Positions 55,255 to 64,000 of a DNA stretch of 64,000 bases are shown piece by piece. Positions within the stretch are counted from its first letter, which is position 1. The number at the start of each line of letters is the position of its first letter. The translations under genes and the position numbers were made by a program. Location: NCBI RefSeq assembly GCF_055900595.2, contig NZ_CM148325.1; one strand, written 5' to 3'. The notes below the pieces were generated by a model. The model did not search any database, had not been told where the DNA came from, and saw only the letters and a program-made list of their open reading frames with translations.

Positions 55255-56946
55255 ATGAAAACGCTGCTGATTATTGACGCTAATCTCGGTCAGGCACGCG
55301 CCTATATGGCGAAGACCCTGCTGGGCGCGGCGGCGCGAAAAGCAAAACTGGAAATCATCGACAATCCGAACGACGCTGAAATGGCGATTGTTCTCGGTGA
55401 TTCCATCCCGAACGACAGCGCGCTGAACGGTAAAAATGTCTGGCTGGGCGATATTTCCCGGGCAGTTGCGCACCCTGAGCTGTTCCTGAGTGAAGCCAAA
55501 GGCCATGCGAAACCTTACACTGCACCGGTCGCTGCAACAGCACCAGTTGCCACCAGCGGTCCGAAACGCGTAGTTGCGGTGACAGCTTGCCCGACTGGCG
55601 TAGCACACACATTTATGGCGGCTGAAGCCATTGAAACCGAAGCGAAAAAACGTGGCTGGTGGGTGAAAGTTGAAACCCGTGGTTCTGTTGGCGCGGGTAA
55701 TGCGATCACCCCTGAAGAAGTCGCAGCAGCGGATCTGGTGATTGTGGCGGCAGATATCGAAGTGGATCTGGCGAAATTTGCTGGTAAACCGATGTATCGC
55801 ACCTCTACCGGTCTGGCGCTGAAGAAAACCGCGCAGGAACTGGATAAAGCGGTTGCTGAAGCAACGCCGTATGAACCGGCGGGCAAAGCTCAAACAGCGA
55901 CCACTGAAGGTAAGAAAGAGGGTGCAGGCGCTTACCGTCACTTGCTGACGGGCGTCTCTTACATGCTGCCGATGGTCGTTGCAGGTGGTCTGTGTATCGC
56001 GCTTTCTTTTGCTTTTGGTATCGAAGCGTTTAAAGAGCCGGGTACGTTGGCAGCGGCGCTGATGCAGATTGGTGGTGGTTCAGCCTTTGCGCTGATGGTG
56101 CCGGTACTGGCAGGTTACATTGCCTTCTCCATTGCCGATCGTCCGGGTCTCACGCCGGGTCTGATTGGCGGTATGCTGGCGGTCAGCACCGGTTCTGGCT
56201 TCATTGGGGGTATTATTGCGGGCTTCCTGGCTGGTTACATTGCGAAGTTAATCAGTACGCAACTGAAACTGCCACAGAGTATGGAGGCGCTGAAACCGAT
56301 CCTGATCATTCCGCTAATTTCCAGTCTGGTGGTCGGTCTGGCGATGATCTACCTGATCGGTAAACCGGTTGCTGGCATTCTCGAAGGGTTGACTCACTGG
56401 CTGCAGACCATGGGGACTGCGAATGCGGTTCTGCTGGGGGCGATCCTCGGTGGCATGATGTGTACTGACATGGGCGGTCCGGTAAATAAAGCAGCGTACG
56501 CATTCGGTGTGGGTCTGCTGAGTACTCAAACCTATGGCCCGATGGCGGCGATTATGGCGGCAGGTATGGTGCCACCGCTGGCAATGGGTCTGGCAACAAT
56601 GGTGGCGCGTCGCAAATTCGACAAAGCGCAGCAGGAAGGTGGCAAAGCCGCTCTGGTTCTTGGTCTGTGCTTTATTTCGGAAGGTGCAATTCCGTTTGCT
56701 GCTCGTGATCCGATGCGTGTGCTGCCGTGTTGTATCGTTGGTGGGGCGCTGACTGGCGCAATCTCAATGGCGATTGGTGCGAAACTGATGGCACCGCACG
56801 GTGGTCTGTTTGTTCTGCTGATCCCTGGCGCTATTACGCCGGTACTGGGTTACCTGGTAGCAATTATTGCCGGTACGCTGGTGGCGGGTTTGGCCTATGC
56901 CTTCCTGAAACGTCCGGAAGTGGACGCAGTAGCGAAAGCAGCGTAA
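55255..56946 (+). CDS. fruA: Fructose PTS EIIB'BC component FruA, 563 aa
   Basis: IIB domain with phospho-Cys in VTACPTGVAHTFMAAE, C-terminal polytopic IIC domain. Confidence 0.96.
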   Translation: MKTLLIIDANLGQARAYMAKTLLGAAARKAKLEIIDNPNDAEMAIVLGDSIPNDSALNGKNVWLGDISRAVAHPELFLSEAKGHAKPYTAPVAATAPVATSGPKRVVAVTACPTGVAHTFMAAEAIETEAKKRGWWVKVETRGSVGAGNAITPEEVAAADLVIVAADIEVDLAKFAGKPMYRTSTGLALKKTAQELDKAVAEATPYEPAGKAQTATTEGKKEGAGAYRHLLTGVSYMLPMVVAGGLCIALSFAFGIEAFKEPGTLAAALMQIGGGSAFALMVPVLAGYIAFSIADRPGLTPGLIGGMLAVSTGSGFIGGIIAGFLAGYIAKLISTQLKLPQSMEALKPILIIPLISSLVVGLAMIYLIGKPVAGILEGLTHWLQTMGTANAVLLGAILGGMMCTDMGGPVNKAAYAFGVGLLSTQTYGPMAAIMAAGMVPPLAMGLATMVARRKFDKAQQEGGKAALVLGLCFISEGAIPFAARDPMRVLPCCIVGGALTGAISMAIGAKLMAPHGGLFVLLIPGAITPVLGYLVAIIAGTLVAGLAYAFLKRPEVDAVAKAA

Positions 56947-56956
56947 TAAAAGGTGT

Positions 56957-56987
56957 GTTACAGGGCAGAAATTTCCTGCCCTGTAAC
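56957..56987 (+). terminator. Hairpin after fruA (terminator-like, weak U-tract)
   Basis: gttacagggcagaaatttcctgccctgtaac perfect 12-bp stem. Confidence 0.6.
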
Positions 56988-57101
56988 ATTTGATGAGCGC
57001 AAAGGGAATGACCAGTTTGTGAATATAATTTTATGAATTTAAATGGTTTTATCTTTCAGTAGAAACCTGAAATGTTCATCAAACACTAAGGTTATTTCCT
57101 T

Positions 57102-57131
57102 AAGGGCAGATTATTTTCTGCCCTTTTTTAG
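57102..57131 (+). terminator. Second rho-independent terminator in the fruA-psuK spacer
   Basis: aagggcagattattttctgccctt hairpin followed by tttta; lies about 115 bp after the first hairpin. Confidence 0.7.
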
Positions 57132-57369
57132 TGTTCCTGTTCTGTGCATCCCGTCACAAATTCCTCACTTTTGTAATTCAGGCATTTAATCGCATTTTGT
57201 GAGCCTGCTCAAATCTGCCCATTTTGCCTCTCTGGCGGCAATTTACTTTACGTAAAACATGCATACTATGAGCACATGTTTAAATATGAACACATGTTTA
57301 AACCGTCTTTGCAGTATCTATATTCTTGTGGATTGACAGGGTTGGTAATTTTTTACCAGAGGACGTGCT

Positions 57370-58311
57370 ATGCGCGAAAAGGATTATGTCGTAATTATAG
57401 GCTCGGCGAATATTGATGTCGCCGGATATTCACATGAATCATTAAATTATGCGGATTCAAATCCAGGTAAAATAAAATTTACGCCTGGTGGGGTAGGGCG
57501 CAATATTGCACAAAACCTGGCGTTGCTGGGTAATAAAGCCTGGCTACTGAGCGCCGTAGGCAGTGATTTTTATGGTCAATCGCTGCTAACGCAAACCAAT
57601 CAATCTGGCGTTTATGTCGATAAATGCCTGATTGTGCCGGGAGAAAATACGTCGAGCTATTTATCATTACTCGATAATACCGGTGAAATGCTGGTTGCTA
57701 TAAATGACATGAATATTAGCAACGCTATTACAGCTGAATATCTCGCACAGCACCGTGAATTTATTCAGAGGGCAAAGGTCATTGTCGCGGACTGTAATAT
57801 CAGTGAAGAGGCACTGGCATGGATTCTGGATAATGCCGCCAACGTACCCGTATTTGTCGATCCTGTTTCTGCGTGGAAATGTGTCAAAGTGCGCGACCGT
57901 CTAAATCTGATCCACACTCTCAAGCCAAACCGCCTTGAAGCGGAAACCCTGAGTGGGATTGCGCTGTCAGGGCGTGAAGATGTGGCAAAGGTTGCCGCCT
58001 GGTTCCATCAACATGGCCTGAACCGACTGGTATTGAGCATGGGCGGCGACGGCGTTTATTACAGTGATATCAGCGGTGAAAGTGGTTGGTCTGCGCCGAT
58101 TAAAACCAATGTCATTAATGTTACCGGAGCGGGCGATGCCATGATGGCGGGACTTGCTTCGTGTTGGGTAGACGGAATGCCGTTTGCCGAATCTGTTCGT
58201 TTCGCACAGGGATGTTCGTCAATGGCGCTCTCCTGTGAATACACCAATAACCCCGATTTATCGATTGCCAACGTTATATCGTTAGTGGAGAACGCAGAAT
58301 GTCTGAATTAA
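57370..58311 (+). CDS. psuK: Pseudouridine kinase PsuK (YeiC), PfkB family, 313 aa
   Basis: PfkB motifs including GAGDAMMAGL; precedes psuG with 13-bp overlap. Confidence 0.93.
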   Translation: MREKDYVVIIGSANIDVAGYSHESLNYADSNPGKIKFTPGGVGRNIAQNLALLGNKAWLLSAVGSDFYGQSLLTQTNQSGVYVDKCLIVPGENTSSYLSLLDNTGEMLVAINDMNISNAITAEYLAQHREFIQRAKVIVADCNISEEALAWILDNAANVPVFVDPVSAWKCVKVRDRLNLIHTLKPNRLEAETLSGIALSGREDVAKVAAWFHQHGLNRLVLSMGGDGVYYSDISGESGWSAPIKTNVINVTGAGDAMMAGLASCWVDGMPFAESVRFAQGCSSMALSCEYTNNPDLSIANVISLVENAECLN

Positions 58312-63824: not shown

Positions 63825-64000
63825 TTACACCATCGGCACTAATGAAAGCGCGTTATCGGCAGACAGGGTAGGGTTGTTTAAGCTGCCGCTGGCGCGTGAA
63901 ATTGCCGCGCAGGCCATCGCAAAACGGGCACTATCACGGAAACTGCTTCCTTCCAGAAAGCTATACACCAGGCCCGCCATAAAACCATCGTCAGCACCAA
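63825..64000 (-). CDS. yeiI: PfkB-family sugar kinase YeiI, C-terminal 58 codons only (gene runs off the window end)
   Basis: Minus-strand frame reads …GADDGFMAGLVYSFLEGSSFRDSARFAMACAAISRASGSLNNPTLSADNALSLVPMV-stop, typical of a ribokinase-family C-terminus; the adjacent gene in E. coli synteny. Confidence 0.7.
   Translation of the reverse strand, partial: GADDGFMAGLVYSFLEGSSFRDSARFAMACAAISRASGSLNNPTLSADNALSLVPMV

Follow-up and report, generated by a model that had tools for sequence, protein, structure and literature searches.

The fruA-psuK spacer of Escherichia coli: a conserved composite palindrome at the psuK promoter, with YeiI as its candidate regulator

In trigger enzymes such as NadR and BirA, the biotin ligase that is also the bio repressor, a helix-turn-helix (HTH) is fused to a pathway enzyme and acts on a dyad at the operon promoter. 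The ROK repressors NagC and Mlc combine an HTH with a sugar-kinase-like sensor domain and have active paralogues that lack the HTH. At the deo operators (TGTTAGAA-TTCTAACA), bound by DeoR, a 16-bp TGTT...AACA palindrome lies over a nucleoside-catabolism promoter, and class I CRP promoters such as malT carry a TGTGA-N6-TCAnA site near −70.5, one helical turn beyond −61.5, a weak −35 element and a fixed spacing between the two. Here we compare these systems with the spacer between fruA, the last gene of fruBKA, and psuK, the first gene of psuKGT, at positions 56947-57369 of a 64,000-nucleotide stretch of Escherichia coli DNA (contig NZ_CM148325.1 of assembly GCF_055900595.2; hereafter the window). 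A literature search found no account of psuKGT control.

The psuK locus shares with deo the 16-bp palindrome, here over the predicted promoter of a nucleoside-catabolism operon, but it has extra outer arms 2 bp away, the inner AGAA/TTCT is unconserved and DeoR belongs to a different protein family from our candidate binder, YeiI. As in malT, a TGTGA-N6-TCAnA site stands at a fixed spacing from a weak predicted −35 element; unlike at malT-type promoters, the psuK start is predicted, the action of CRP is one that we infer, and a second CRP-like site is present upstream. The fused HTH-PsuK proteins of Serratia, Yersinia, Photorhabdus and Pasteurella fit the trigger-enzyme pattern by sequence, and a ligand would set their DNA binding. 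In contrast to BirA and NadR their enzyme part has a PfkB nucleoside kinase fold, and in the E. coli group they appear split into PsuK, which lost the HTH, and YeiI, which kept it and has degenerate motifs. YeiI also recalls NagC and Mlc, although the folds are unrelated (PfkB ribokinase-like as opposed to ROK/ASKHA). We read the spacer as bipartite: positions 56947-57131 would form the 3′ untranslated region (UTR) of fruBKA, and 57132-57369 the control region of psuKGT, in which a weak CRP-activated promoter would be shut by a protein that binds a composite palindrome, most likely YeiI. We put the probability of this reading, taken as a whole, at about 0.6.

The central element is an 18-bp tandem repeat (Table 1), which the initial annotation had put forward as a candidate operator of the pseudouridine-utilization operon while knowing of no dedicated regulation. 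It was returned both by Tandem Repeats Finder (TRF) and by a second repeat finder, and no tandem repeat of such quality arose in 1000 dinucleotide shuffles of the sequence, the chance test against which the hairpin pair described below was also scored. The repeat lies 68-103 nt 5′ of the psuK ATG (57370) and is half of a 28-bp composite palindrome, which in the window takes the form AGCA-CA-TGTT-N8-AACA-CA-TGTT (57271-57298). Compared across genera, the element resolves into the dyad AACA-NN-TGTT-N8-AACA-NN-TGTT, that is, two 10-bp palindromes 18 bp apart, and its best-kept part is the inner 16-bp palindrome TGTT-N8-AACA (57277-57292). The arms AACA and TGTT are kept. The 8 bp that separate the palindromes vary, and so does the central dinucleotide (CA, TG, CG, TA, AG or GG). 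The hexamers ACATGT and TTTAAA, earlier singled out as the palindromes within each unit, are not conserved; the arms are.

To map constraint within the genus we compared five Escherichia species, taking psuK third-codon positions as the neutral yardstick (74% invariant columns). Invariant columns made up 52% of the segment between the hairpins, 87% of hairpin 2, 90% of the proximal CRP-like site, 93% of the −35 to −10 interval and 100% of the repeat, and 59-79% of the stretches flanking the promoter blocks. Positions 57270-57303, invariant in all 34 columns, form the most conserved stretch of the spacer. Comparative alignment over a wider range, which the initial annotation had proposed, showed the two-unit structure with its 18-bp spacing in 11 genera from two orders, among them Escherichia, Citrobacter, Raoultella, Buttiauxella, Klebsiella, Brenneria, Serratia, Yersinia, Photorhabdus and Pasteurella, and it is kept although the flanks are unalignable between distant genera. 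Klebsiella and Brenneria have perfect or near-perfect copies. In Serratia the arrangement is cTTTACT-15-TATAAA-...AACTcaTGTTtaaaaacaAACAagTGTC, with 5 nt left before the ATG; the Pasteurella counterpart is AACAaaAGTTgaaaaataAACAggTGTT. A repressor operator is expected to combine conserved dyad symmetry with variable non-contact bases; kept arms with free central dinucleotides and inner 8 bp were found in 11 genera.

TGTT-N8-AACA has its only copy in the 64-kb window at psuK, and a search for the motif at other window promoters (rihB, nupX and yeiL) found none. It occurs once, at psuK, in each of seven related 6-10-kb loci scanned; the Pasteurella locus has no copy because one arm there reads AGTT. 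Relative to the predicted start the operator would extend from the −10 edge to about +23 (about −5 to +23), as a repressor operator would. These comparisons strongly support the repeat as an ancient conserved cis-element at the predicted core promoter, and its best reading is as the operator of a pseudouridine-sensing repressor, most likely YeiI.

A promoter was predicted from an alignment of the 200 bp 5′ of psuK in 14 sequences, drawn from four genera (Escherichia species, Buttiauxella, Citrobacter and Raoultella); the last two have a LysR-type gene, not fruA, in front of psuK. Three blocks were invariant and at fixed spacing, TTGTGA-N6-TCA.ATCT (57197-57216), TTTAC.T (57242-57248) and TA..AT (57264-57269), and the two repeat cores and a hairpin beside the Shine-Dalgarno sequence formed further blocks. 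No gaps fell between the CRP-like site and the promoter. The predicted psuK start lies at about 57276. Because the hexamers match the consensus at only 8 of 12 positions, this promoter was missed by the promoter scan. A candidate downstream promoter, TTTAAA-16-TATATT (57297-57324), was rejected as unconserved beyond the main Escherichia allele.

The proximal CRP-like site agrees with TGTGA-N6-TCACA at 9 of 10 positions, and its centre falls at about −70.5 from the predicted start; class I CRP sites are centred near −61.5, −71.5, −82.5 or −92.5. A perfect TGTGA-N6-TCACA stands upstream of the proximal site in Brenneria. CRP-cAMP (cyclic AMP) would activate the weak sigma-70 psuK promoter from the site near −70.5, with the second CRP-like site 55 bp further upstream. 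The literature searched gave no link of CRP to psuK (yeiC). In the stretch between the two CRP-like sites the main E. coli allele alone has two copies of GCATTT, 10 bp apart.

Table 1. Features of the fruA-psuK spacer and its neighbours (window positions)
Feature	Coordinates	Strand	Details
fruA coding sequence, last gene of fruBKA	55255..56946	+	stop ends 56946; open reading frame list and RefSeq annotation of matching genomes
Hairpin 1	56955..56989	unstranded	14-bp stem, 7-nt loop; free energy −24 kcal/mol, z −6.2
Inter-hairpin segment	56990..57101	+	112 bp; fruBKA 3′ UTR filler, single-copy, fast-evolving
Hairpin 2 with T6 run, intrinsic terminator	57102..57131 (stem-loop 57102-57125)	+	free energy −15.4 kcal/mol, z −4.6
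Distal CRP-like site TGTGCatcccgTCACA	57143..57158, centre 57150.5	unstranded	55 bp from proximal site; read from sequence; partly conserved (TGT...TC.C.A)
Proximal CRP-like site TGTGAgcctgcTCAAA	57198..57213, centre 57205.5	unstranded
−35 hexamer TTTACT	57242..57247	+	TTTAC the same in all 14 aligned sequences (4 genera) and found in most other genera examined; Pasteurella TTTAT
−10 hexamer TACTAT	57264..57269	+	16 nt past the −35 hexamer; TA..AT invariant
18-bp tandem repeat TATGAGCACATGTTTAAA / TATGAACACATGTTTAAA	57267-57284 and 57285-57302	unstranded	17/18 identical; TRF score 65
5′ UTR hairpin TGGTAA-TTTT-TTACCA	57343..57358	+	6 bp; abuts Shine-Dalgarno GAGGA (57359-57363)
psuK, pseudouridine kinase	57370..58311	+	313 amino acids; PfkB domain only, no DNA-binding domain
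yeiI 3′ end	63828..64000	−	residues 306-362, runs off the window; tblastn, K-12 annotation, domains

The promoter assignment bears on a known adaptive mutation. Adaptive changes recur in the interval between psuK and fruA: the single-nucleotide polymorphism (SNP) 2257444 A>C rose in many independent K-12 populations in the mouse gut (PMC7518454, PMC9509342, PMC6731689, PMC10340439), including five of seven mice in one study, whose authors place it in the psuK promoter region and state that it alters in vitro growth (PMC9509342), and an A>C ‘psuKp’ allele is described from three long-term stationary-phase populations (PMC7858067). By our mapping the base lies 126 nt 5′ of the psuK ATG and corresponds to T57244 of the window and to position 2259422 of K-12 NC_000913.3, with A on the reference strand. 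The change converts the −35 hexamer from TTTACT to TTGACT and supports the psuK promoter assignment. A TTGACT variant that is otherwise exact over 90 nt was present in five complete genomes, namely the laboratory K-12 derivatives ER1821R, ER2683, S17-1 and ST18 and the pigeon isolate fEC.1. The SNP would raise the strength of a repressed, CRP-dependent promoter.

The candidate binder emerged from the distribution of PsuK itself. A protein search with PsuK found homologues of about 60% identity and 355-372 amino acids in Yersinia, Serratia, Photorhabdus, Xenorhabdus and Pasteurellaceae. In these an N-terminal winged HTH is fused to the kinase, seen as HTH_24 in homologues of 362-372 amino acids, and their genes head psuK-psuG(-psuT) operons and have the same promoter and operator upstream. 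E. coli YeiI, a protein of 362 amino acids (K-12 yeiI, extract L017 2201-3286), likewise consists of HTH_24 (E 1e-10; 41.2 bits against a Pfam cut-off of 21.9) and PfkB. Along its whole length YeiI shares 51% identity with Serratia HTH-PsuK, with the HTH well conserved, and it is 39% identical to E. coli PsuK. In its AlphaFold model (predicted local distance difference test score 86) an N-terminal domain of three helices is joined through a flexible linker to a PsuK-like domain, and the C-terminal domain superposes on the solved structure of E. coli PsuK with a template modelling score of 0.95 (normalized to PsuK) and a root-mean-square deviation of 1.7 Å. When the PDB was searched with the model, all of the matches listed covered the kinase domain only, and none of them spanned the HTH-PfkB architecture.

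Gene linkage points to the same protein. The yeiI gene stands directly after psuT, in convergent orientation, in E. albertii, four Citrobacter, Raoultella, two Buttiauxella, Klebsiella and Brenneria (six genera), and in Brenneria the yeiI-psuT adjacency is kept with every other neighbour different. In E. coli, by the K-12 annotation, yeiL-rihB-nupX is inserted between psuT and yeiI. No second HTH-PfkB gene was found in the fused-PsuK loci, so that every locus of either kind has exactly one HTH-PfkB protein, fused or separate. The PfkB family has the catalytic motifs NxxE and GAGD, and both are kept by PsuK and HTH-PsuK. In three orthologues of the YeiI clade NxxE has become T..E (KPNRLEAE to KPTLPELE) and GAGD has become GADD, and YeiI may therefore be inactive as a kinase.

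There is also a hint, and only that, of how PsuK could have lost its HTH. The in-frame translation of the Citrobacter psuK 5′ UTR (extract L012 2935-3000), CVALVIFNELICGKLIARGRA-M, faintly resembles the end of the HTH, GVAGHIMNLMNKGYIKGKGYIL, and the tblastn alignment extends through this stretch. The operator stands 10-11 nt before the ATG in fused forms versus 66-97 nt in forms without the HTH. Together the resemblance and the distances would suggest that the HTH was lost from psuK by a 5′ deletion.

We propose that YeiI, or HTH-PsuK itself in other genera, would occupy the dyad around the start and block initiation, with YeiI bound as one dimer or as two paired dimers, and that pseudouridine or its phosphate, held in the PsuK-like domain, would release it from DNA. 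An ancestral bifunctional winged helix-pseudouridine kinase would have come apart into YeiI and E. coli PsuK as its two halves, and its fused form would persist in Serratia, Yersinia, Photorhabdus and Pasteurella. Taken to its full extent, the proposal is that YeiI would be the regulator of pseudouridine catabolism (‘PsuR’), a pseudokinase factor born of the duplication and split of a bifunctional kinase into this sensor-repressor and the enzyme PsuK, whose 5′ UTR would still bear traces of the lost DNA-binding domain; that YeiI binds the 28-bp palindrome at the psuK start and is released by pseudouridine; and that the adaptive SNP strengthens the −35 hexamer. This fuller version we hold tentatively, at somewhat short of even odds.

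Several observations weigh against the YeiI reading. The placement of the operator at −5 to +23 rests on a predicted promoter with hexamers of only 8/12, and the position of the SNP on an offset of 1978 between K-12 sequence versions, which we take to be correct and which agrees with the reference base A. The NCBI name for the YeiI family is ‘sugar kinase’ only. No operator-like site was found upstream of Brenneria yeiI, and the psuKGT locus of Aeromonas jandaei has neither an adjacent HTH-PfkB gene nor the AACA/TGTT palindrome. If YeiI were a simple repressor, loss of function in yeiI would be expected as an easy adaptive route; the evolution studies report only the −35 SNP, and yeiI is not mentioned in the available text of PMC9509342 or PMC7858067. 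The lack of yeiI mutants would fit if pseudouridine already induces the psu operon in the gut, itself an assumption. In A. jandaei a different palindrome, AGTTGTtaaatACAACT, is found just before psuK (extract L026 2142-2471).

It is possible, although we consider it unlikely, that the operator is bound by another regulator, such as a DeoR-family or other global factor, and that YeiI is simply a paralogous kinase. The K-12 deo operators TGTTAGAATTCTAACA and TGTTAGAATACTAACA have the TGTT-N8-AACA frame, which is unique to psuK within the window, and by our own count the inner psuK palindrome, TGTTTAAATATGAACA, agrees with them at 11-12 of 16 positions. E. coli has uncharacterized members of the DeoR family, and the absence of yeiI mutants from the evolution reports, as far as their available text goes, would suit such a regulator. 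However, the inner 8 bp, AGAA/TTCT in DeoR sites, vary freely among genera at psuK. Of the 11 psu-bearing genera with a readable locus, 10 have the operator together with an HTH-PfkB protein encoded there. A DeoR operator was rejected, the frame being common to both and the inner AGAA/TTCT variable and different at psuK. The comparative CytR regulon study that we searched mentions no psu or yei genes, and the spacer has no LexA box. YeiL as a local regulator adjoins only in Escherichia, and the LysR-type gene upstream of Citrobacter psuK is absent elsewhere.

Improbable, in our assessment, is that the repeat is conserved for a function in RNA or translation, as a 5′ stabilizing stem-loop, a leaderless start (ATG 57276), a leader peptide or a pairing site for the small RNA RprA. 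The predicted psuK start coincides with an ATG, and the first 28 nt of the E. coli 5′ UTR fold as an 11-bp hairpin. An in-frame ATG inside the operator, at about the predicted start, is where the gene caller begins HTH-psuK in Serratia and Yersinia (MFKNKQVSNM...; extracts L018 3501-3530 and L020 3501-3530), and the second ATG has no Shine-Dalgarno sequence, so the HTH-psuK mRNA could be leaderless in these genera. Against this, the conserved first-arm bases 57271-57274 lie upstream of the predicted start, the conserved part is symmetric about the dyad with a free central dinucleotide, and Citrobacter does not preserve the 5′ 11-bp hairpin. Frames read across the repeat vary between genera, the upstream ATG of Photorhabdus being out of frame by our own count and the Pasteurella operator having no ATG. 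The small open reading frames over the repeat (46 amino acids, MFKYEH..., and 22 amino acids, MSTCLN...) were rejected, as neither frames nor lengths are conserved.

Contact between RprA and psuK is reported from TRIC-seq and RIL-seq. The most favourable pairing predicted joins 57345-57374, which holds the Shine-Dalgarno sequence and the AUG and lies outside the repeat, with nucleotides 30-65 of RprA at −22.8 kcal/mol; 5 of 100 shuffles were as good. Pairing of RprA with the repeat was rejected, as the whole-length duplex was no better than shuffled sequence and the best site in windows was again the Shine-Dalgarno sequence and AUG.

The hairpin that abuts the Shine-Dalgarno sequence (Table 1) is a separate matter. 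Across the 14 aligned sequences 98.8% of its cells are paired, and one pair covaries (CG in eight sequences, UA in five and UG in one, E. albertii), which points to a role at the RNA level. A sigma-54 promoter at this position was rejected. The Citrobacter sequence TGGCAAGTTAATTGCC fits one, but the GG-N10-GC spacing within TGGCAC-N5-TTGC is right only in some Citrobacter and Raoultella and wrong in E. coli, Buttiauxella and FP75; the site also lies right against the Shine-Dalgarno sequence.

In the other half of the spacer the initial annotation had noted two similar hairpins, a perfect one after fruA and a second with a U tract. Both were recovered (Table 1). The core of hairpin 1, gttacagggcag...ctgccctgtaac, is perfectly paired, the hairpins are 113 nt apart, and they have in common the motif AGGGCAGA...TTTyCTGCCCT, with about 19 of 22 positions alike by eye; two distant hairpins with a common 7-bp stem arose in none of the 1000 shuffles. 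The hairpins share a stable GC-rich stem, and a U tract on the + strand is found at hairpin 2 only, as in Rho-independent terminators. In the terminator scan hairpin 2 was the sole + strand call in both E. coli alleles. Its U tract corresponds to about 2,259,533-2,259,538 on the minus strand of K-12 NC_000913.3. Hairpin 1 was called on the − strand only (tail CACCTTTTAT); it was not called on the + strand because its tail there, CATTTGAT, fails the U-tract rule. The stem core of hairpin 1 is conserved among Escherichia species, and two outer pairs have changed on both sides.

Comparison with other genera indicates which hairpin is the older. In Buttiauxella and Klebsiella oxytoca, where psuK also lies 3′ of fruA, hairpin 1 is absent and a single hairpin stands directly past the stop, GGGGCAGAGAgttCTCTGCCC-T6 and GGGCAGAGtcttCTCTGCCC-T7, respectively. 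Its distance from the psuK control block is that of hairpin 2, which on these grounds is, by the sequence comparison, the ancestral intrinsic terminator of fruBKA. The initial annotation had seen no gene in front of the second terminator; as the conserved fruBKA terminator, hairpin 2 serves fruA. Transcription of fruBKA would end there, insulating psuK. Hairpin 1 and the 112 bp behind it are, by the same comparison, an Escherichia-specific insertion between the fruA stop and the terminator, with hairpin 1 the later addition. A fail-safe role for the pair is possible.

A small RNA from this region has little to recommend it. It was suggested at the outset that hairpin 2 might end a small independent transcript; we considered an independent or 3′-UTR-derived RNA of about 100-180 nt from between the hairpins, or an antisense RNA that ends at hairpin 1, and judge either very improbable. 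The stem and U tract of hairpin 2 are typical of the 3′ ends of Hfq-binding small RNAs, and hairpin 1 is the better terminator on the − strand. A 146-nt segment folds well (z −5.1); most of this fold depends on the 7-bp inverted repeat TTGATGA...TCATCAA, which is invariant, and on a few compensated pairs. Structural support is weak, as 4 of 47 pairs have changes on both sides. A promoter scan of the inter-hairpin segment found no promoter-like site on either strand, and an Rfam scan of the spacer found no family at or near threshold, and for these reasons we see no support for an independent small RNA. Conservation also fails for the TATAAT at 57024-57029, which is TGTAAT in K-12 and lost in other species. 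The segment, which has one copy per genome, evolves faster than the psuK third-codon positions, is absent from Buttiauxella and Klebsiella, and is replaced by a pair of repetitive extragenic palindromic (REP) sequences in 22% of E. coli genomes. It may nonetheless be the source of a fragment processed from the 3′ UTR. Nor is the segment a decayed REP or bacterial interspersed mosaic element or a mobile element: it is single copy, and its similarity to the REP pair of the alternative allele was no better than that of shuffled sequence.

Of the small transcript and the operator that the initial annotation had proposed, only the latter is supported, and it has gained a candidate dedicated regulator in YeiI. 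Least credible of all, and already contradicted by conservation, is that the tandem repeat is a neutral slippage duplication without function: such 18-bp duplications do arise through slippage and the E. coli units are 94% identical, but the two-unit structure recurs at the same spacing in 11 genera across two orders and is the most conserved stretch of the spacer.

The window is E. coli DNA with the gene order fruA, psuK, psuG, psuT, yeiL, rihB, nupX and the 3′ end of yeiI, and the RefSeq records of the matching genomes compared annotate no gene or RNA in the fruA-psuK interval. A 521-bp query matched 4232 of 5426 complete E. coli genomes, with 100% identity to one dog isolate and 95-99% to most of the matching genomes. 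The spacer is dimorphic in the species: the 4232 genomes have the window type, and exactly 1194 (22%) have a 454-bp alternative that resembles that of E. albertii (NZ_CP148423.1, extract L001 3575-4028). In this allele fruA is followed by the hairpin CATCATCGGGGCTGAGACATCTCTGCCCCGATGATG, then by a pair of REP sequences of which the genome has many copies, and then by GAGGGCAGAGACATCTCTGCCCTTTTT, which is orthologous to hairpin 2; REP elements are likewise known downstream of operons. Its core promoter, TTTACA-16-TATTAT, scored 10 of 12 in the promoter scan, versus 8 of 12 for the window allele. In NZ_CP148423.1, a chicken isolate, psuK is annotated as a frameshifted pseudogene (extract L001 4029-4971).

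Within each allele the two hairpins, loop included, are more alike than are their counterparts across alleles (window 56955-56989 and 57102-57125; extract L001 3583-3618 and 3760-3783), unlike usual terminators. It would appear from this that the fruBKA terminator underwent duplication or gene conversion independently in the two.

The hairpins are thus an ordinary terminator with a lineage-specific insert. Few sites are hit as repeatably as the fruA-psuK spacer when E. coli adapts to the mouse gut or to long-term stationary phase, and the recurrent SNP gains a concrete reading, as a −35 up-mutation of a weak promoter that would be CRP-dependent and operator-controlled; 22% of complete E. coli genomes have an alternative allele with a stronger core promoter. 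For yeiI the analysis offers a testable candidate function, and for the HTH-PfkB proteins it offers a clean, if apparent, example of a bifunctional enzyme-regulator that separated into two proteins, one an enzyme and the other a pseudo-enzyme regulator.

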